Shown here piece after piece: positions 18,719 through 32,732 of a stretch of 64,000 nucleotides of DNA (positions within the stretch are counted from its first letter, which is position 1; the number at the start of each line of letters is the position of its first letter). Source of the DNA: Spirochaetia bacterium (GTDB lineage: Bacteria; Spirochaetota; Spirochaetia; CADAEX01); the NCBI GenBank assembly GCA_963662265.2, contig CAXXHA010000013.1, positions 32,001 through 96,000 of the forward strand. Reading direction: 5' to 3'. The position numbers and the translations under genes were made by a program. The notes beneath the pieces are model-generated. The model was given only the letters and a program-made list of their open reading frames with translations, was not told the DNA's origin and ran no database searches.

Positions 18719-19618
18719 TCATAATAAAACAGAAATTACAAAAACTGCTGAATAAATAAAAACAAACTCAAGAAACAGATCAGAAATAATATTCATTGAG
18801 AACCCCTTTGTTTCTGCGTTCAGTCCTTTTTTAAAGAGTTTTGTCAGTTTTTTTATTGCCAGAAAAAGATAAACAGGTATGCCGAAAAGCTGGTAAGCTG
18901 TGATATAACCCATGATGACCGCATATATGACTGAAGCTGCAGCAGCAAGTGATTCGAAGATGATAATGTACCTGGAAAATGTTTCACCGGAAATTATTGA
19001 AAGTGTTTTTCTTCCCGCTTCCCTGTCTCCTGTCATGTCGCATGTATTGTTTACTGTAAGAATCTGTGCAACTGTGAAAAACAGGGGAAGTGATGCAGTA
19101 AATGAAGAAGCTGTGAATGTGCCTGTCTGTACAAAGCAGACAAGCATAAAAAGAACTGTTCCCAGAAATCCCCCTGCTGCGATTTCTCCGAAAGGGGTGA
19201 ATGATATGGGTCTCGGCCCTGCTGTATAGAAGAAGCCGACTGCCATGGAAAAAGCTCCTAGCGGGATAAGCACAAGCCCCTTCCAGAACGCAAGAACAGT
19301 TCCCGTTACAGCTGCAAGAAAAAAAAGTGAAAGAGCTGTAATAAGAGCATTTCCCGGGTCGACATTTTCATGGATAAGTACTTTATCTTTTTCCATGTTG
19401 TGTTTTTTATTGTCAACACCTTTAAGATAATCGAAATATGTATTGAATGCAGTTGTTCCCATATCAATGCAGAGAACAGCAGCCAGCATAAGAAGGGCGG
19501 CTCCTGTATTGAATGTTATTCCGATTGAATACATATAAGCTGTTGCAGCTGCATAGGTTCCTATACTTACTATTTTTGTCCTGATTTCTATTATTGAATA
19601 AAACTGTTTCAGATTCAT
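18719..19618 (-). CDS. menA: UbiA-family prenyltransferase, MenA/DmkA-like
   Basis: EIRTK start, NTYFDY..GVD and NNTCD..GD...GRKTL aspartate-rich motifs, YT.GP..IS.TPFGE, multiple TM helices. Confidence 0.85.
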   Translation of the reverse strand: MNLKQFYSIIEIRTKIVSIGTYAAATAYMYSIGITFNTGAALLMLAAVLCIDMGTTAFNTYFDYLKGVDNKKHNMEKDKVLIHENVDPGNALITALSLFFLAAVTGTVLAFWKGLVLIPLGAFSMAVGFFYTAGPRPISFTPFGEIAAGGFLGTVLFMLVCFVQTGTFTASSFTASLPLFFTVAQILTVNNTCDMTGDREAGRKTLSIISGETFSRYIIIFESLAAAASVIYAVIMGYITAYQLFGIPVYLFLAIKKLTKLFKKGLNAETKGFSMNIISDLFLEFVFIYSAVFVISVLL

Positions 19619-19686: not shown

Positions 19687-20403
19687 TTATCTTTTTACAG
19701 CATCAAGGTCGCCTGATATGGTCAGAATATTTCCTTTCAGTTCTGCCTTCAGAGTACCTTTCCAGTAATACATTGATTCAGGAGAAGCCCCGTCCTTGAA
19801 TATTTTACCTGTTTTTTTACCGCTTCCGGGAGCAACTTCTTTTCCTCCCGGTATAGAAGAATTCCAGACCTTTTTCCAGTCAACTTTATCTGCCATACCG
19901 TTTGAAGAGAAGTCTTTTGAAATAACCTGAGGTTTCCCTCTTGGAATGAATCCTATTGCTCTCTTTTCAAATGATCCGTCAGGCAGTGAGATGTTGCCGT
20001 TTCTATCTGTAATAATTTTATAAGCTGTCCCCCTGTGTGTATACTGTATTGTTATTACACCGTTTACATTTTTTGCATTAAGATTGTCGATTTTTGCCTG
20101 TTCAGAACCTGCAACACCGAAAAGAAAAAGTCCCCTCAATCCATCTGCAAGGGCATTTTTCCCTTTTACATCGTATCGATACGGCTGAAACATTTCTGTT
20201 GATTTTTTTATTGAAGCACCCGAGACAGCGTCATAGTGGTCTTTATCAGCTGCCATGTATCTTATAGGTCCTTTAAATGAAAAGTAACTTGTTTTTGTCT
20301 TGCCTGAAACATCTACCTGGTAATCTATTGAAAGATCAGCAGCAAAAACAAATCCTCCGAGCAGAAACATTAATAATACTGTTATCAGAATTTTATTTTT
20401 CAC
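19687..20403 (-). CDS. Exported hypothetical protein with a DAVSGAS flavinylation-type motif
   Basis: GTG start after GGAGG; signal peptide MKNKILITVLLMFLLGGFVFA; DAVSGAS encoded at 20212-20232. Confidence 0.75.
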   Translation of the reverse strand: MKNKILITVLLMFLLGGFVFAADLSIDYQVDVSGKTKTSYFSFKGPIRYMAADKDHYDAVSGASIKKSTEMFQPYRYDVKGKNALADGLRGLFLFGVAGSEQAKIDNLNAKNVNGVITIQYTHRGTAYKIITDRNGNISLPDGSFEKRAIGFIPRGKPQVISKDFSSNGMADKVDWKKVWNSSIPGGKEVAPGSGKKTGKIFKDGASPESMYYWKGTLKAELKGNILTISGDLDAVKR

Positions 20404-20442
20404 TTCTACAACCTCCATGATTTTTTGATTGTTGATAATAAA

Positions 20443-20471
20443 ATTATTCAACGATTATTGATATATGTCAA
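20443..20471 (-). promoter_or_regulatory. sigma70 promoter overlapped by an FNR/Crp-like dyad
   Basis: Minus strand TTGACA-17-AATAAT; TTGAT-ATAT-GTCAA at 20458-20471. Confidence 0.45.
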
Positions 20472-20621
20472 TTATTTTCCTATTATTTCTATAGGAATAA
20501 GGCTTAAATGTGTTAAATATACTGGACTTTTCATCCTTCGCATTTGATAATTATTATATTGAACTGTATCAGTTTAAAAATAATTGAATATTATGAAAAA
20601 GAAATTATATATGGAGGCTGT

Positions 20622-22817
20622 ATGGATACCAGGAAAATTGTAATACTTGGCGGCGGTTATGCCGGTATAGAGGCTGCCGGGAAACTATATAAACACTTCA
20701 GGAAAGACAAATCTGTTGAAATAACTGTAATTGACAGGAATACATATCATACACTCATGACAGAGCTGCATGAAGTTGCCGGTTCCAGGGTAGTCCCTGA
20801 TTCTGTGATGATAAGCTACGAAAGAATTTTTTCCGGAACAGATATAAAGCTTGTCAGTGATAATATAATTGGAATTGATTATGAGAAAAAGATACTTGTT
20901 TCTGATTTGAATCGTTATGAATATGATTATCTGATATTGGGAACAGGGGGTGCTCCTGAATTTTTTGATCTTCCCGGAATACAGGAAAATTCATTTTCTC
21001 TCTGGTCTCTTGAGGATGCAGTCAAAATCAGGGAGCATATTGAGGAGCAGTTCCGTCTTGCCGCAAAAGAACCTGATAAAGACAAAAGGGAAAAGATGCT
21101 GACATTCACGGTTGCAGGAGCAGGGTTTACAGGTATAGAGCTGATAGGCGAGATTGCAGAAAGAAAAGATATACTGTGCAGGAGATATCATATAGATGCA
21201 AGTTGTGTAAACCTGATTGTGATTGAAGCACTTGATTCGATTCTGCCGATTATTGAAGAAAATCTGAGAGCAAAAGCGTTTAAGTATATGAGAAAAAAGG
21301 GAATTCAGGTATTTCTCGGGAAAAGAATACTTGAAGTTTCAGATGGAAGCGTTGTTCTTGATGATGGGACAGAAATTGATGCAGGTACTTTTGTCTGGAC
21401 CTGTGGTATTCATGGATCTGAATTTACTTCCCGCATTGATATAGAAAAAGGGAGCGAAGCATTCGGTAAATGCAGCATTGCATCGGCAAGCGGAATACAC
21501 GGTATGAGCGGAAGCAGGTTTGAAGTAGATGAGATCAGGTTAGTGGCAAAGAGGGGGAGGATACTTGTCAATAAATTCATGCAGACTCCTGATCATCCTG
21601 ATATCTATGCTGTCGGTGATAATATGTGGTTTATTGAAGATGAAAAGCCCCTTCCCCAGATTGTTGAGACAGCACTTCAGACAGGTAAAACAGCAGCTGA
21701 AAATATAATTGCAGATATAAAAGGTCTGGAAAAGAAAGCCTTTAAATCAAACTATCACGGGTTCATGGTCTCAATAGGGAGCAGATATGCTGTTTCAAAT
21801 GCAGGAGGGCTGAAGCTTTCCGGTTTTTTTGCGATGGCTATGAAGCATATTGTCAATCTTCATTATCTTTTCGGTCTTGCCGGCCTGAATACTGTATGGG
21901 GGTACCTGAAACATGAGTTTTTCGATATGAAAGACAGGCGGACTTTTATCGGTGAACACCTTTCATGGAAGATTCAGGGTTGGTGGGGAGTTCCTCTCCG
22001 GCTCTGGCTGGGTATTATGTGGCTTGCCGAAGGTGCCAATAAGATTGGTGAGGGATGGCTCTCTTTTTCTTCAGGCTCAAAATCCGGATGGATGTTCAGC
22101 CCGGGAGTAATACAGAGAGGTGTTGAAGTTGCACCTGATGCAGTAGGTTCAGCGACAGGAGCAGCGGAAGGAGCGGCTGAGTATGCTGCAGATGTGGTAA
22201 CAGCAGCGACAGGAGCAGCGGAAGGAGCGGCTGAATATGCGGCAGATGCGGTAACCGCAGCGACAGGAGCAGCGGAAGGAGCGGCTGAATATGCGGCAGA
22301 TGTGGTAACCGCAGCGACAGGAGCAGCAGAAGGTGCTGTTGAAATAGCAGCAGATCATATTGCCTGGGCATTCGGTAAAATATGGGATACAGGCAAATCA
22401 ATTATTCCGTATGATTCCTTTATTGTTACATGGTTCAGGGAAACTTTCATGGATAACATGATGGCTTATATCAGTTATCCCCTGTTTCAGTTAATGATAG
22501 TTTCAGTTGAAATTGCTATAGGGCTTGCCCTTCTGGGCGGACTTTTTACATGGCTTGTAGCTGCAGGATCTATCGCAATGTGCGGTGTATTTATACTTTC
22601 CGGAATGTTCAGCTGGGATCAGCTCTGGTTTGTATTTGGAGCTTTTCTCCTTCTCGGCGGTGCAGGCAGGAGTTTCGGGTTTGATCACTGGGTAATGCCT
22701 TTTATTAAAAGACTGTGGAATGCTTCATCAATAGCCAGGAAAACTCATCTCTATATAAATGAACCTGTCAGCAGAAAGAAGGGTAAAATAAACAAGGCTG
22801 AAGGAAAAAATAAATAA
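20622..22817 (+). CDS. ndh2: Type II NADH dehydrogenase with C-terminal DoxX-like membrane domain (Ndh2/EET type)
   Basis: GGGYAG and GAGFTGIE Rossmann motifs, HTLMTELHEVAG, PQIVETALQT, then VPLRLWLGIMWLAEG...EIAIGLALLGGLFT...GAGRSFGFD; RBS GGAGG. Confidence 0.88.
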   Translation: MDTRKIVILGGGYAGIEAAGKLYKHFRKDKSVEITVIDRNTYHTLMTELHEVAGSRVVPDSVMISYERIFSGTDIKLVSDNIIGIDYEKKILVSDLNRYEYDYLILGTGGAPEFFDLPGIQENSFSLWSLEDAVKIREHIEEQFRLAAKEPDKDKREKMLTFTVAGAGFTGIELIGEIAERKDILCRRYHIDASCVNLIVIEALDSILPIIEENLRAKAFKYMRKKGIQVFLGKRILEVSDGSVVLDDGTEIDAGTFVWTCGIHGSEFTSRIDIEKGSEAFGKCSIASASGIHGMSGSRFEVDEIRLVAKRGRILVNKFMQTPDHPDIYAVGDNMWFIEDEKPLPQIVETALQTGKTAAENIIADIKGLEKKAFKSNYHGFMVSIGSRYAVSNAGGLKLSGFFAMAMKHIVNLHYLFGLAGLNTVWGYLKHEFFDMKDRRTFIGEHLSWKIQGWWGVPLRLWLGIMWLAEGANKIGEGWLSFSSGSKSGWMFSPGVIQRGVEVAPDAVGSATGAAEGAAEYAADVVTAATGAAEGAAEYAADAVTAATGAAEGAAEYAADVVTAATGAAEGAVEIAADHIAWAFGKIWDTGKSIIPYDSFIVTWFRETFMDNMMAYISYPLFQLMIVSVEIAIGLALLGGLFTWLVAAGSIAMCGVFILSGMFSWDQLWFVFGAFLLLGGAGRSFGFDHWVMPFIKRLWNASSIARKTHLYINEPVSRKKGKINKAEGKNK
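22137..22352 (+). repeat. 4 x 54-bp in-frame tandem repeat in ndh2 (DAVTAATGAAEGAAEYAA-type)
   Basis: GAT codons at 22137, 22191, 22245, 22299, 22353; units begin DAVGSAT, DVVTAAT, DAVTAAT, DVVTAAT. Confidence 0.95.
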
Positions 22818-22834
22818 ATACAAGGACTGGATAT

Positions 22835-23800
22835 TTGGTTAACGCAGTTTTAAACAGACTACATTTGGAAAAGGATCTTGAAAAGGTAAGGGAAGTAATC
22901 CTTTCTGCTTCTGATGATTCAATTCCTGTTGTCAGGGAATGTATTGAATCAATTGTTGCTTCAGGCGGGAAAATGCTCCGCCCTTTGTTTCTGATATTAT
23001 CATCCCGGATAGGGGGTGCTGACCCTGAGAGGGTCTACCGGCTTGCTGCTGGAATTGAGCTTCTTCATATATCTTCCCTTATTCATGATGATATTATTGA
23101 TAACTCCAGTAAAAGAAGGGGAATCCCCGCAGTACACAAAGTATATGGTGTAAAAAACGGAGTACTTCTGGGCGATTATTTTTTCTCACAAAGCATATCG
23201 CTTCTGACAGAAAAAATGATGATGGAAAACAGTTCTGCCGCTGCAAAGACTGTTTCGAGGATTTGTGAGAGCGAGATACTGCAGAATATTGAGAATGCGG
23301 AAAAAGACTTCAGGTTAAGGACTTATATAAGGCATATTACCGGGAAAACTGCTGTGCTTTTTATTCTCAGTTTCCATCTGGGAGCTGTTGAGGGGGGATG
23401 CTCAGGAGAGCTGCAGTCAGTATTCAGAAAGATCGGATATAATACCGGGATTGCTTTCCAGATTATAGACGACATACTTGATTTTACAGGCAGGGAAAAC
23501 AAGGTCGGAAAACCTGTGGGAAATGATCTGAGAAACGGAATTATAACTGCGCCTGCGATTTTTGCAGTACAGGAAGATCCTTCAATGGTTAATCTGCTGA
23601 GCTCTTCCAATCTCTTTAATAAAAGCAAAATAAATAAATTTATCAGTATGACAGTAAAGAACGGAGCAATTGGAAGATCCCGAAAACTGGCTTCCTCCTA
23701 CACTGACAGGGCAATAAAAGAGATAGGTAACCTGCCTGAAGGGAATGTTAAAACTGCACTACATGAACTTGTAAGCTCCCTTCTTGTCAGGGATTATTAA
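22835..23800 (+). CDS. Polyprenyl (heptaprenyl-type) diphosphate synthase, HepT/DmkB-like
   Basis: GGKMLRP, LIHDDIID...RRG, KTA, FQIIDDILD. Confidence 0.92.
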   Translation: MVNAVLNRLHLEKDLEKVREVILSASDDSIPVVRECIESIVASGGKMLRPLFLILSSRIGGADPERVYRLAAGIELLHISSLIHDDIIDNSSKRRGIPAVHKVYGVKNGVLLGDYFFSQSISLLTEKMMMENSSAAAKTVSRICESEILQNIENAEKDFRLRTYIRHITGKTAVLFILSFHLGAVEGGCSGELQSVFRKIGYNTGIAFQIIDDILDFTGRENKVGKPVGNDLRNGIITAPAIFAVQEDPSMVNLLSSSNLFNKSKINKFISMTVKNGAIGRSRKLASSYTDRAIKEIGNLPEGNVKTALHELVSSLLVRDY

Positions 23801-24000
23801 TTCAGGGAGACAGCTGTACAGGGTATTTCCCTCCTCTGTTTTTCTCTGAATAATTTTCAGTTTTATATACATGATCTTCAGCCAGTTTTTGTTTTTCAGT
23901 ATTTTCTGATTGATTTCAAAATTAGAAATAAGAACTGCTGGATTAATAAAAAATGAGCAGATATGTCTGTCATTTAATATTAAAAAGAAAGGAAAGATTT

Positions 24001-24654
24001 ATGAATATTTCAGATATAATCAATAAAAGGCATGCTGTTAAAAGTTTTGATCCTGACAGGACGATAGAGCTTGATAAAATAAAGCAGCTTGAAAAAATAT
24101 TAAGGCTCAGCCCTTCATCAGTAAATCTTCAGCCCTGGCATTATATTATTGCAGGTACACAAGAGGGAAAGAAGCTGATAGCGGAATCAGCAACAGGCCA
24201 GTTCGCATATAACAGGGATAAAATACTCAACGCTTCTCTTGTTGTTGTCTTCTGTTCAAAGAAATCTCTTGATGATGAATATCTTAAAGGATTGATTGAG
24301 CAGGAGGATAAGGACGGCAGGTTTAAAGATGACAGGGCAAGGGAAGTTCAGTATGGTGTTAAATCCGGTTTTTCAGATCTGCACCGTAAAGAATTCCATG
24401 ACCCGGAAGAGTGGATGAAGCGCCAGGTTTATCTTTCTGCCGGTTTTTTTCTCATGGGTGCAGCTTCCCTTGATATTGATACCTGTCCCATGGAGGGATT
24501 TGACAGCAGAAAGCTGGATAAGCTTCTCAGTTTAAATAAAAGGGGATTTGAATCTTCTGTTATTGTTGCTGCAGGATACAGAAGCAGCGATGATTTTAAC
24601 GCATCTCTGCCTAAATCCAGACTGCCTTCAGATTCAGTTATAACAAGGATCTGA
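24001..24654 (+). CDS. nfsB: Oxygen-insensitive NAD(P)H nitroreductase
   Basis: RHAVKSFDP, SPSSVNLQPWH, QVYL, PMEGFD, DDFNASLPKSRLP. Confidence 0.88.
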   Translation: MNISDIINKRHAVKSFDPDRTIELDKIKQLEKILRLSPSSVNLQPWHYIIAGTQEGKKLIAESATGQFAYNRDKILNASLVVVFCSKKSLDDEYLKGLIEQEDKDGRFKDDRAREVQYGVKSGFSDLHRKEFHDPEEWMKRQVYLSAGFFLMGAASLDIDTCPMEGFDSRKLDKLLSLNKRGFESSVIVAAGYRSSDDFNASLPKSRLPSDSVITRI

Positions 24655-24692: not shown

Positions 24693-25361
24693 TCAGATCA
24701 GACTGTTGAGCAGTTTTTTATCTTTTATTCTGATTCCGGGATATCCAGTACCAATTGCTTCTTCAGAAGCAAGTTCTTTCAATACCCTGTTGAGATGTCT
24801 GACTGATGTTCCCAGCATGGAAGCCAGGACCTCTTTTTCCGGTAGAATAATCACATTGCTGCTGCCTGATTCAGGACGAGTCATTATATAGAGTGCAAAT
24901 CTTGATTTTACCGGAAGAATATGGCCAAGTATCAATGAGGTTGAAAAGTAAAGTTTATCGACAAGCTGCTCAATAATAAATCTCAGAAAAACAGGATCTT
25001 CAAGACCGTGTTTCCTTACTTTATCCATTGGTATACCAAGAAGAACAGATGGTGCTGTTGTCATTACTGCAGTGGAGGCAGGATTGTTATTCAATATTTC
25101 CACATCCCCGAGTGCAGTAAGCGGTTTTGAGATTGCGACAACAGCCAGGGTCCCGTTTGCATTGTAATGAGCACATCTCAGTTCCCCTTCCACAAGGAGG
25201 TAGAACATTGGAATTTCTTCCTGCTCCGGGAAGATTGTTTTATAGGATTCAAATCTGTACATTTTCATGTTTTCAATGAGAACTGAGTTGAGAATATTTT
25301 TCAGACTGTATTTATCTGTATAATAATCAATTGTTTTGCCGGTGGTTTTCTCTTTTTCCAA
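24693..25361 (-). CDS. Crp/Fnr-family regulator (YeiL-like)
   Basis: cNMP-like domain (LVEG..., GDVE) and HTH LASMLGTSVRHLNRVL. Confidence 0.85.
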   Translation of the reverse strand: MEKEKTTGKTIDYYTDKYSLKNILNSVLIENMKMYRFESYKTIFPEQEEIPMFYLLVEGELRCAHYNANGTLAVVAISKPLTALGDVEILNNNPASTAVMTTAPSVLLGIPMDKVRKHGLEDPVFLRFIIEQLVDKLYFSTSLILGHILPVKSRFALYIMTRPESGSSNVIILPEKEVLASMLGTSVRHLNRVLKELASEEAIGTGYPGIRIKDKKLLNSLI

Positions 25362-25491: not shown

Positions 25492-25551
25492 GTATAAAGA
25501 AACGAGCTCCCTGTATATTCAAATTATAACTGCAGCAGGAGGCGGTTGGTA

Positions 25552-25869
25552 ATGTTTAGAAAAATACCATTATTTATATCTTTTATTATGGTGGAAAAGT
25601 CAGAGTCTGCGGAATCAGGTAATAAACTAGATAATAAACTAGATAATAAACTAGATAATAAACTAGATAATAAACTAGATAATAAACTAGATAATAAACT
25701 AGATAATAAACTAGATAATAAACTAGATAATAAACTAGATAATAAACTAGATAATCCTGCAGAACTGGACAGCGGAAAAAAATACTCCCATTATTCAGAT
25801 ATTGCAGAGGGAAATGCCCTGAATGATGCGGAACGGGAAGCAAAGTCATTGCTGTACAGGATGGTTTGA
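25552..25869 (+). CDS. Short hypothetical ORF with (NKLD)11 repeat; may be a gene remnant
   Basis: RBS AGGAGG, hydrophobic N-terminus MFRKIPLFISFIMV, repeat in frame. Confidence 0.35.
   Translation: MFRKIPLFISFIMVEKSESAESGNKLDNKLDNKLDNKLDNKLDNKLDNKLDNKLDNKLDNKLDNKLDNPAELDSGKKYSHYSDIAEGNALNDAEREAKSLLYRMV
25621..25755 (+). repeat. Perfect 12-bp tandem repeat (AATAAACTAGAT) x 11 plus partial copy
   Basis: 11 identical units at 25621-25752, then AAT. Confidence 0.97.
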
Positions 25870-25929: not shown

Positions 25930-26754
25930 TTATATTTTAATTCTGTTAATATTAATGCCTTCAGACTGGACTGCTCTTGAATATTTTATTCCCGGTTTTC
26001 CGAAGACAAGAACACCCCCTATAATGTGGTCTTCCGGAATTCCCAGCTTTTTCCTGAGGTAGGGAGCTATTTCTGTCAGTACCCATTTGACCATTCCGTT
26101 CCAGAGGGTTGCAATTCCTGATGCATTTGCTGCCAGTTCAAAGTAGCTCAGGGATATTATGCAGTCTTCCATGGCAGTTGTTGCTGATTCAGGGGCAGAT
26201 GCAATAACCATATGCGGCGCTCCGCGGAAAAGTACATCGATATTCTTTTTCAGCCACAGAACCTGGAATTTTGCAAGAAGAGGAAGGTTCCTGTTTTTAT
26301 TACCCCTGTCTGCTTCATCCCTGATTGCAGAATAGAAAAGTTCCTTTAATTTGTGGAAGTCCTCTTTGTTGTCAGACACGGAAAGCAGGACACTGTTGTC
26401 ATTGTGACCTGTCGGTGCATAGGAGGCAGATTCCAGAAGAGTACTGATCTGCTCATCTGTGAGATTTTCATCTTTGTATTTTCGTACAGATCTTCTGGTT
26501 TTTATCATCCTGTTCAGAAGATCCGGGTCAGGTAGTCTGTTTTCTACCGGCAGGCTTTCATCCGGATTCTTTCCGAATATGGATATAGCCCCTTCAGGGC
26601 AGACAGCCAGGCAGTGCTGGCACCTTATGCAGTGGTTTTCCTTACCATCTTTGAGGTAAGGGTATTCCCCCATTACAATTATCATTGACGGGCAGTCCTG
26701 GGCGCAGAGCCCGCATCCTGTGCATTTTTCTTCATTAATTTCAAAATCAAGCAT
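25930..26754 (-). CDS. Nitroreductase with N-terminal 2x[4Fe-4S] ferredoxin domain
   Basis: CTGCGLCAQDCP and CIRCQHCLAVCP; RRSVRKY; APTGHN. Confidence 0.92.
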   Translation of the reverse strand: MLDFEINEEKCTGCGLCAQDCPSMIIVMGEYPYLKDGKENHCIRCQHCLAVCPEGAISIFGKNPDESLPVENRLPDPDLLNRMIKTRRSVRKYKDENLTDEQISTLLESASYAPTGHNDNSVLLSVSDNKEDFHKLKELFYSAIRDEADRGNKNRNLPLLAKFQVLWLKKNIDVLFRGAPHMVIASAPESATTAMEDCIISLSYFELAANASGIATLWNGMVKWVLTEIAPYLRKKLGIPEDHIIGGVLVFGKPGIKYSRAVQSEGININRIKI

Positions 26755-27025
26755 GAAGAATATGATAATGTTTTTATTTTTCTTTTCAAGCATTATCAGG
26801 CTCTATTCGGATAAAAAAGACAGGGAGAGTATGCTGTTTAAGAATATCCAGGTTTTAAACCCCTTGTTGCCTCTGTTCTAAATACGTTTTCACACTGCAG
26901 CAGAGGGATTCCGCGGTTTGTGAATAATATGTTCAGTCAGGTTTTTGTTGATCAGACCTTCCGGCTTTTTGTGCCGGATGATACAGGGGGCATTATAAAA
27001 TGTTTTCAGTCGTTTTTGGATTAAT

Positions 27026-31247: not shown

Positions 31248-32732
31248 TTACTGGATTTCTGCATTCTGCTTTTCAAAAGCTTCCGCAAGTCTTTCACGTA
31301 TAATATTAAGCTGATCTTCTGTTCTTATTTTGAATTTTCTCAGTATATCTTTTGATATCTGCTCGAAAACTATCTCATCTGATTCAAGATTTGCTATCAC
31401 ATTTGCGAGATAAATTGCCTCGACTGTTCCCTTCATTTCCGGGCTTGCGAGATGAGGTTCATGGTGATATTTTATCGCTTCAATCAGCTGGTCAGGGAAA
31501 TTCCATTTTTCAGCAATTAAAGCTCCTATTTCGGCATGGTTGAGTCCCGCGGAAAGGTCTTCGAAAAGATCCCTGTCAATTTCCCTTTCCCTGCACAGTG
31601 CTGAAATCTTTTCAAGCAGAACAGGATGAGCATTGAAAAATATAATCTTTCCTATGTCATGGAGAATCCCGCCGACATATACATCATCCAGTATATCCTT
31701 GCTGTTGACCAGATATGTTTTTGCAAGGTTGTATGCATAGAATGCTGTCCTGTTTGCATGGTCCCAATGTTCCTTGAGAGCTTTCTTGAGTATTTTCTGT
31801 GTTCCGTAGGAATAGAGCAGTGTTTTGAGGCCCCGGAGGCCTACCATTTTAACTGCTTCGGCAATATTATCAACTTTCTTTGCAAGCATAAACTGCGCAG
31901 AGTTGACAAGTTTAAGAAGGTCTGCAGTCAGAGATATATCCATTGCTATGTGTTTTGCAATATCTGCTATTTCTGATTCAGGGTCATCAATCATTTTCTG
32001 TAGCTGGACAATGTTTTCAGGGAACTGAGGCAGTTCATCAATTTCCTGGACAATTTCTCTTGAAAGAACATGGAGATTTTCCTTGTGGACGTCTGAGAAC
32101 GGGATAACAAGCTGGGCTATGGTTTCATCTCCTTCTACATCTATGTCGAAGGATTCTTCATCAAGTCCCAGTTTCTTAAGCATAAGAACAAGGATAACAA
32201 GTCCCAGTCCCGCTCCTTCCGATGAGTCAAGTACTGCGCTCATTGCCTCTTCAAGTGAATTGAATGCTCTTGACCTTGCAATCCTGTCGTAGACTCTCAT
32301 CTGTTCTTTTCTGGATATTTTTACATTATTCTTTATTATGAGTTTTAATGATTCGCCGGATGCATGGAATACTATTTTGATGTATAAACCTGCATCTTTC
32401 TGTTTTTCAAGGTAATATTCAATATTACTCAGGGTAGCTTCTTTAAAGGATGCCATCCCCTCCTGATAGTCTTTTTCGTTTGTTATGTCTAGCTTCTGTT
32501 CTTCAAAGAAGACTCGTTTTGTATTAGCCTTGTTTGCGTTTACAGCCAGTTCACGCATACAGTAAGAAATCTGAGGAGTCAGTTCCTGCTGACCGAATTC
32601 TTTCAGGAAATGAAAAAGTATCGATTCAAGATACTCCTCTGTTTCGTGATTCATTTTAAAGGTTTTTATTGTCAGAGGAAGAGATGTTCTTGCCGCTTTC
32701 TGAATTTTTGCAACATCAACTGCTGGTGCCAT
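31248..32732 (-). CDS. HDOD-domain protein with N-terminal HATPase-like domain
   Basis: ELAVNANKAN...EGAGLGL; LPQFP, LLKLVNSA, LHDIGK, HAEIGALIAEKWNFP. Confidence 0.85.
   Translation of the reverse strand: MAPAVDVAKIQKAARTSLPLTIKTFKMNHETEEYLESILFHFLKEFGQQELTPQISYCMRELAVNANKANTKRVFFEEQKLDITNEKDYQEGMASFKEATLSNIEYYLEKQKDAGLYIKIVFHASGESLKLIIKNNVKISRKEQMRVYDRIARSRAFNSLEEAMSAVLDSSEGAGLGLVILVLMLKKLGLDEESFDIDVEGDETIAQLVIPFSDVHKENLHVLSREIVQEIDELPQFPENIVQLQKMIDDPESEIADIAKHIAMDISLTADLLKLVNSAQFMLAKKVDNIAEAVKMVGLRGLKTLLYSYGTQKILKKALKEHWDHANRTAFYAYNLAKTYLVNSKDILDDVYVGGILHDIGKIIFFNAHPVLLEKISALCREREIDRDLFEDLSAGLNHAEIGALIAEKWNFPDQLIEAIKYHHEPHLASPEMKGTVEAIYLANVIANLESDEIVFEQISKDILRKFKIRTEDQLNIIRERLAEAFEKQNAEIQ

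Follow-up and report, generated by a model that had tools for sequence, protein, structure and literature searches.

ApbE attaches flavin mononucleotide (FMN) covalently to the last Ser or Thr of the motif D-x-x-[S/T]-G-A-[S/T] in extracytosolic proteins, and seven residues are enough for recognition according to passages of a review (PMC12052999). Mutagenesis by Bertsova, as relayed in the same passages, left about 50% flavinylation after Gly-to-Ala and Ala-to-Val changes and none after Thr-to-Ala, with minor effects of Asp-to-Ala. Substrates of ApbE or FmnB include NqrC, RnfG and PplA. Here we describe an ndh2-like gene in a stretch of 64,000 nucleotides (positions 32,001 to 96,000 of contig CAXXHA010000013.1, assembly GCA_963662265.2), analyzed as a whole and hereafter called the window. 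The genome is that of a spirochaete, judged by the names of homologues. The gene carries an in-frame array of four 54-bp units, each encoding a heptad close to the ApbE motif. We consider it reasonably likely that this array is a set of tandem ApbE flavinylation sites lacking an FMN-binding domain, which would tether FMN to a periplasmic loop in the membrane domain of an Ndh2 of the type found in flavin-based extracellular electron transfer (FLEET). An initial annotation, made from the sequence alone, had proposed flavinylation, and our analysis partly supports it. We infer flavinylation and electron flow from the computed anatomy of the array, a topology rule, motif conservation and synteny.

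FLEET occurs widely among anaerobes of gut, food and sediment. In Listeria monocytogenes (Light et al. 2018, via PMC8906456 and PMC9973259), Ndh2 joins NDH-2 to an additional C-terminal membrane domain, and DmkA/DmkB-type genes cluster with it; in the accessible portions of the two later papers, the published model has PplA (and FrdA) as the flavinylated proteins, and not Ndh2. Rivera-Lugo et al. assign EetB as the subunit for export of flavin adenine dinucleotide (FAD), and one passage of their paper suggests that an eetA deletion strain is like wild type (PMC9973259). With EetB reassigned and EetA apparently dispensable, the quinol-to-PplA step is left without a named carrier in these excerpts. 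We found no description of Ndh2 flavinylation in the searchable literature, a search that did not cover supplements. If the reading proposed here is true, the ApbE-like motif would place the missing hand-off from the quinone pool on Ndh2 itself, at its outer loop.

As in NqrC, RnfG and PplA, each D-x-x-[S/T]-x-A-[S/T] heptad of the window protein closes with the putative acceptor Ser/Thr, in a segment predicted to be extracytosolic; the genome has an ApbE gene, with synteny in relatives. Unlike them, the window protein has no FMN_bind (PF04205) or other flavin fold around the sites, carries Ala or Ser instead of Gly two residues before the acceptor (position -2, the acceptor being position 0), and holds its sites in tandem in the loop of an integral membrane domain. 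Tong et al. reportedly treated multi-flavinylated proteins in 2023. In the excerpts of Meheust et al. 2021 (PMC8238504) such proteins are defined by multiple FMN-binding domains, as many as 13, and the word Ndh2 is absent from the main text. The loop shares with them several predicted covalent FMNs per extracytosolic polypeptide and the idea of longer-range transfer, but in place of multiple FMN-binding domains it has a bare 7-mer with a spacer of 0-33 residues, in up to 10 copies, inside Ndh2.

Sites outside any FMN_bind domain have a precedent in the proteins of FMN_red and Flavodoxin_4 type that are associated with ApbE, where they lie on an unstructured extension; those of FMN_red were shown experimentally to be flavinylated, according to the available part of Huang et al. 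2024 (10.1101/2024.03.13.584918). There, unlike here, the tethered FMN docks in a pre-existing flavin pocket of the protein itself; none is evident in our case. The Flavin-tag, a family of 7-9 residue ApbE labelling tags, indicates that ApbE needs no more than a bare heptad in a flexible stretch (PMC12052999, in part). That tag is an engineered tool, whereas the arrays described here would be its natural counterpart and, if the reading is true, the first example in nature of flavin tags that are tandem and domain-less.

An array of four heptads within the ndh2-like gene

The gene and the parts of its product are as follows.

20622..22817, + strand: ndh2-like gene, encoding an NDH-2 (Pyr_redox_2) domain and then a C-terminal DoxX-like domain of four transmembrane (TM) helices
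21978..22049, + strand: TM1, residues about 479-502; helix 10-33 of the 288-aa C-terminal piece modeled with AlphaFold2 (AF2), predicted local distance difference test (pLDDT) >90
22050..22475, + strand: TM1-TM2 loop, predicted periplasmic, residues about 503-644; 5 Lys/Arg versus 18 Asp/Glu
22137..22352, + strand: four tandem units of 54 bp (18 aa), each made of a 7-mer D-[AV]-V-[GT]-[SA]-A-T plus an 11-aa spacer of the GAAEGAAEYAA type
22476..22691, + strand: TM2-TM4 of the DoxX-like bundle; AF2 helices 176-196, 200-216 and 222-235 of the C-terminal piece
22707..22814, + strand: basic C-terminal tail, predicted cytoplasmic; 11 Lys/Arg in 36 residues

The initial annotation had described four tandem 54-bp units made of such 7-mers and spacers, and both Tandem Repeats Finder (54-bp unit, 3.8 copies, 92% matches, 22150-22355) and the in-frame translation bear it out. 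The units start at 22137, 22191, 22245 and 22299 within the open reading frame (ORF) 20544..22817 (+), which encodes 757 aa. They translate as DAVGSATGAAEGAAEYAA (unit 1, DAVGSAT-GAAEGAAEYAA), DVVTAATGAAEGAAEYAA (unit 2, DVVTAAT-GAAEGAAEYAA), DAVTAATGAAEGAAEYAA (unit 3, DAVTAAT-GAAEGAAEYAA) and DVVTAATGAAEGAVEIAA (unit 4, DVVTAAT-GAAEGAVEIAA), with T538, T556, T574 and T592 of the 757-aa numbering as putative acceptor residues. Per 54 nt, units 2 and 3 differ at 2 positions and units 1 and 2 at 8, while unit 4 has 9 mismatches to each of units 2 and 3. The window 7-mers agree with the ApbE consensus at 6/7 positions: Asp, Ala at -1 and Thr at 0 are present, and no unit has Gly at -2, as the initial annotation had cautioned. 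Two ORFs on the opposite strand over the array (22096..22401 and 22149..22358) were set aside as by-products of the repeat.

Short-read contigs from two samples were compared with the array, and the assemblies split inside it. For the piece that units 2 and 3 share, depth was 10.3 in one sample, against 5.8 and 4.98 in its flanks, and 33.9 in the other, against 17.4 and 15.5; this roughly two-fold depth fits about four copies. No copy-number variants or joints were visible in this material, which consists of contigs only, from assemblies that break inside the array.

The ORF is open from a TTG at 20544, 26 codons ahead of an ATG at 20622 (window 20544-20621). The ATG (MDTRKIVILGGGYAG) is probably the start codon, matching the start MDTRK of the same-genus orthologue, and the upstream TTG is probably unused.

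The array sits in a loop of a DoxX-like membrane domain

As in FLEET-type Ndh2, an NDH-2 domain (PF07992, Pyr_redox_2, 1.4e-35) is followed by a C-terminal transmembrane domain. The initial annotation had spoken of an Ndh2 membrane domain; such a domain is present, and its description can be refined to a DoxX-like domain of four TM helices. DoxX (PF07681) scored 19.2 and 22.0 bits at the C-terminus of the window protein against a gathering cut-off of 23.6, and many homologues carry precomputed PF07681 matches. The AF2 model covered the last 288 residues, was built from a 75-sequence alignment and reached a mean pLDDT of 78.6. Its four-helix core exceeded 90. Along the loop, pLDDT was 92-94 before the repeat, 41-63 inside it and >95 after it, so that the repeat appears as an insertion between two confidently structured loop ends and is itself drawn as low-confidence helices. 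Foldseek of the C-terminal model against PDB returned no match. In a wide structural search (VIA) the top match was NACHO/TMEM35A (9h9e_C, Z 9.7, root-mean-square deviation 3.6, 116 aligned), which we take to be a DoxX-family member. This likeness of the model is suggestive, and for helical bundles such a Z may reflect only a common arrangement. The domain thus resembles the DoxX family in its 4-TM bundle, with NACHO/TMEM35A as the nearest solved fold, and differs from it in scoring below the Pfam cut-off, in its fusion to NDH-2 and in its long inserted TM1-TM2 loop.

The array is bounded by the helices ...VPLRLWLGIMWLAEG... and ...LFQLMIVSVEIAIG..., and both the sequence and the AF2 helices agree with the earlier placement between the first TM helix and the next. 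A basic C-terminal tail, an acidic loop, four TM helices and a cytoplasmic N-terminal NDH-2 domain together indicate that the loop is periplasmic. By the positive-inside rule, and with an even number of helices, both ends of the protein would be inside, and this rule-based prediction agrees with the periplasmic location first suggested. No Pfam family covers the TM1-TM2 loop, no FMN-binding fold (FMN_bind, NQR2/RnfD, DUF2271 and the like) was found there, and PF04205 has no match in the window Ndh2. A complex prediction that combined ApbE (residues 22-342) and the loop (50-150) with FAD yielded a score of only 0.05 (mark 0.32), which is no answer, and counts neither way.

The heptad is conserved and varies in copy number

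Homologues were collected in three samples: the best 120 of 353 spirochaete-type matches, the best 150 of 159 clusters that the C-terminal piece matched among 1.84 billion representatives at 50% identity, and the best 120 of 1337 matches to a Clostridia member. We counted full-length proteins with a parsable loop that contained at least one D..[ST][GAS]A[ST], and compared them with 300 composition-preserving shuffles, which ignore relatedness.

Spirochaete set: motif in the loop of 71/112; shuffled mean 2.7 (max 8); outside the loop, 3 in 62,241 residues
50%-identity representatives: motif in the loop of 13/20; shuffled mean 0.3 (max 2); outside the loop, 0 in 10,769 residues
Clostridia set: motif in the loop of 100/104; shuffled mean 1.4 (max 6); outside the loop, 0 in 56,893 residues

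The loop motif is therefore enriched 25- to 70-fold over shuffled loops, and the 7-mer persists in two phyla while the spacers differ in sequence and in length (7 to 40 residues). The conservation and variable copy number for which the initial annotation had called are thus seen in homologues, far above shuffled controls, together with some canonical Gly forms. An exact canonical motif occupies the same loop position in several orthologues (DAVSGAS in G025; DTTSGAS, DGTSGAS, DATTGAS and DGASGAT in others), and Clostridia homologues with DAVSGAT and DAVTGAT in the loop were found as well. Where orthologues have short, non-repetitive loops, a single site stands right after TM1 (DAVSGAS, DTTSGAS, DGTSGAS, DATTGAS, and LVSGAT and LVSGAS forms). 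Copy number ranges from 0 to 10 across the full-length homologues retrieved, and among proteins of at least 90% identity there are 5 copies in P0001, 3 in P0002 and 4 in the window.

In two homologues the heptads of this loop follow one another without any spacer, ten in a row in P0425, where DATSGAT and DAVSGAT are mixed with DAVSAAT, and eight in P0428. The repeat unit can thus coincide exactly with the seven-residue minimal recognition motif of ApbE. A clade of Ndh2-DoxX proteins of about 620 aa, with Defluviitaleaceae, Acetobacterium and Treponema among the names (e.g. P0214 and P0389-P0424), has a different, aromatic-rich loop.

ApbE and the genes around ndh2

An ApbE is available, as the flavinylation proposal presupposes. 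The genome of the window (G000) encodes a single one (PF02424, 301.6 bits, C41:15204-16232), a lipoprotein by its lipobox, and in relatives the gene is syntenic with ndh2. Among spirochaetes, ApbE adjoins ndh2 in 8 of the 18 relatives with a full-length gene, and in 6 of those 8 no ORF of at least 90 aa other than ApbE carries [DE]..[STA][GA]A[ST] in the flanks examined (5.9-19 kb). Clostridia loci were taken from species representatives, 77/80 of which could be parsed, 66 reaching 6 kb or more downstream. An ApbE homologue, checked with Pfam, lies in the ndh2 operon of 65 of these 66 loci and of 68/80 loci overall. Anaerocolumna, Kineothrix alysoides and Ruminiclostridium species are among the named candidates for Clostridia with a motif-bearing ndh2 operon. 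The Clostridia operon runs ndh2 – polyprenyl synthase – UbiA – (NusG_II, Hpre_diP_synt_I) – two-fold-repeat lipoprotein – ApbE; from operon position, we take NusG_II to be EetA and Hpre_diP_synt_I to be EetB. The FLEET operon of these relatives is complete, the lipoprotein being PplA-like.

ApbE was found in 35/41 genomes, including that of the window: 16/18 with an ndh2-like gene and 19/23 without one. In G030 and G037 (94% and 93% complete) Ndh2 is present and ApbE was undetected, with 5 and 4 FMN_bind matches respectively; since these genomes encode FMN_bind proteins, ApbE is probably unassembled there, and they would not be counter-examples. The genome of the window has three FMN_bind matches, none in Ndh2, and its own FMN_bind motifs are already off consensus (EGITGAS, DAIGGAT).

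Three genes flank the window ndh2.

19687..20451, - strand: 254-aa protein with a signal-like hydrophobic N-terminus and one canonical DAVSGAS, divergent from ndh2
18719..19618, - strand: 1,4-dihydroxy-2-naphthoate prenyltransferase-like protein of the UbiA family (DmkA/MenA-like); PF01040 1.7e-25, and NF009926 3.7e-45, below the curated cut-off
22835..23800, + strand: polyprenyl diphosphate synthase (DmkB-like), immediately downstream of ndh2; PF00348 2.4e-61

DmkA (UbiA) and DmkB (polyprenyl synthase) thus cluster with ndh2 as in FLEET loci. The clustering with PplA, EetA/EetB and FmnA/FmnB is not seen: ApbE is on another contig and the neighbour with DAVSGAS is an unrelated 254-aa protein. 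PF07009 and PF07456 have no match in this 90.6% complete genome. Compared with Listeria FLEET, the window spirochaete therefore lacks matches to these two families and has the 254-aa DAVSGAS protein in the place of PplA; its locus is a reduced version of the FLEET locus. The 254-aa neighbour matched no Pfam or NCBIfam family, its same-genus orthologue has DAVSGAS at residue 71, and a protein atlas search gave only a 0.81 match to a spirochaete cluster. We regard it as a candidate periplasmic flavinylated partner.

A possible electron path and competing explanations

Under the flavinylation reading, electron flow could be pictured as follows. NADH would reduce the FAD of the cytoplasmic NDH-2 domain, as the family assignment suggests, and the FAD would reduce a quinone of (demethyl)menaquinone type, to judge from the flanking DmkA/DmkB-like genes. 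The quinol would then be oxidized at the 4-TM DoxX-like domain and its electrons would pass, in the central step of the proposal, to FMN that the lipoprotein ApbE would have linked by a phospho-ester to the last Thr of each 7-mer. The tethered flavins may hand electrons to periplasmic acceptors, the neighbouring DAVSGAS protein being a likely next carrier. Recent slippage or recombination would have amplified the 54-bp unit and multiplied the tethered flavins, hence reach or flux, and a rigid wire would not be required. A helix, if formed, would align all acceptors along a single face, at intervals of about 10.5 Å for heptads and of about 27 Å for the 18-residue units of the window. Given this wide spacing and the low AF2 confidence of the repeat, the wire and the copy-number tuning put forward in the initial annotation are speculation, and in the window several flexible tethers are likelier than a rigid wire. 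A more ambitious version holds that FLEET-type Ndh2 is itself flavinylated, that its DoxX-like domain oxidizes quinol, that domain-less loop FMNs link membrane quinone to extracytosolic acceptors, and that heptads in helical register (up to ten contiguous, about 10 Å apart) form a protein-minimal multi-flavin conduit resembling a multi-haem wire; we offer it tentatively and with considerable doubt. Already under the simpler flavinylation reading, if true, a motif found in two phyla and amplified up to ten-fold would bear on the specificity rules of ApbE (Ala/Ser at -2, Glu at -6) and on the engineering of multi-flavin conduits.

Several observations weigh against flavinylation of the loop. No FMN-binding pocket is evident around the sites to shield the flavin, and ApbE in the genome of the window lies on a contig other than that of ndh2. 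The synteny in Clostridia is supportive and unspecific, since the PplA-like lipoprotein of the same operon also explains it; nor does genome co-occurrence discriminate, ApbE being near-ubiquitous in the class. At position -6, about half of the 484 spirochaete units have Glu or Ala (D 231, E 118, A 105). At position -2, canonical Gly amounts to only 59 over 386 proteins, with 564 Ala and 180 Ser; separate counts gave A 450, G 20 and S 14 in the 484 spirochaete units and A 115, S 99 and G 18 in Clostridia. Loops of the 620-aa clade type lack the motif (76/113 parsed). Finally, the distance from motif to motif has its maxima at 7, 10-11, 14-15, 17-18 and 21-22 residues and dips in between, a pattern that the spirochaete and Clostridia sets each show. 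These peaks correspond to whole alpha-helical turns (resultant about 0.4 at a period of 3.6-3.8) and also fit a structural helix, though the counts are non-independent, coming from related sequences and tandem unit copies. A register table over every Asp was too diluted by non-motif Asp to inform and was discarded.

Such a helix leads to the main competing explanation, in which the loop is an Ala-rich alpha-helical spacer or stalk (e.g. alacoil-like, with a stripe of small polar D/S/T residues) that carries no flavin and resembles the ApbE motif by convergence; it would set the geometry of the periplasmic DoxX-like part or serve helix-helix contacts. Ala makes up 43% of the loop, bulky or basic residues are nearly absent from it, the repeat is modeled by AF2 as low-confidence helices, motif spacing falls on whole helical turns in both sets, Gly as a helix breaker is disfavoured at -2, and Asp can be replaced by Glu or Ala, all of which such a spacer would accommodate. 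It leaves unexplained, however, the single canonical DAVSGAS, DATTGAS or LVSGAT that follows TM1 in short loops, the Gly forms interspersed in arrays (DATSGAT and DAVSGAT in P0425) and the presence of ApbE beside ndh2 in loci without another visible substrate, and the support it draws from spacing is weakened by the kinship and tandem copies behind those counts. We think it unlikely that a flavin-free helix is the whole explanation. The helical-scaffold and flavinylation readings are not mutually exclusive.

A further alternative is that the Ser/Thr of the units receive some other extracytosolic modification, for instance O-glycosylation or phosphorylation. These acceptor-like residues are conserved, and exposed low-complexity segments rich in Ala, Ser and Thr are typical O-glycosylation regions in several bacteria. 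We know of no glycosylation sequon that fits the register D(-6), A(-1), S/T(0), and the annotated loci show no syntenic glycosyltransferase. This fixed register is that of ApbE sites in the available passages of the review (PMC12052999), and we give another modification very little credence. The same low standing goes to a neutral, functionless insertion of low complexity, recently expanded by replication slippage in a tolerant loop. It would account for the 2/54 nt that separate units 2 and 3, for the 5, 3 and 4 copies in P0001, P0002 and the window at 90% identity or above, and for the low AF2 confidence of the repeat, but it is highly improbable in the face of a 7-mer kept across two phyla while its spacers diverged, enriched 25- to 70-fold over shuffled loops and nearly missing elsewhere in the proteins. 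Tandem flavinylation is the reading that we prefer.

Further observations on ndh2 loci

In Clostridia, the two-fold-repeat lipoprotein (L102:10960-12117, L106:11961-12968, L095:10926-12005, L074:11037-12041 and L046:11194-12318) has no Pfam family and is PplA-like by position. Each of its halves contains one [DE]-L-[STAV]-[AS]-S-V-T heptad; if these are FMN sites, they depart from the consensus at -2 and -1. In a same-genus genome (G002, locus L023) the ndh2-dmkB pair stands directly beside ApbE, in a neighbourhood that otherwise equals G000 C41:9730-18624, where ndh2 is missing.

The genome of the window also encodes a paralogous Ndh2 (C32:5818-7914) with 68% identity and a single DAVSAAS. 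Its flanking genes match in order and sizes a set beside ndh2 in G008 that is putatively UbiX/UbiA/UbiD-like, and a second polyprenyl synthase-like gene follows. If these flank identities hold, the genome would contain two such Ndh2 modules.

Just downstream of the ndh2 module in the window, at 23953-24654, 24693-25361 and 25930-26793, lie two nitroreductase-family genes, one of them with an N-terminal 2x[4Fe-4S] domain, and one regulator of Crp/Fnr type; these may be redox partners or regulators of the module. Between the Crp-family regulator and the ferredoxin-nitroreductase gene, ORF 25546..25869 (+, 107 aa) contains a perfect 12-bp tandem repeat at 25620-25755 (11.3 copies, 100% matches) that encodes (NKLD)n.

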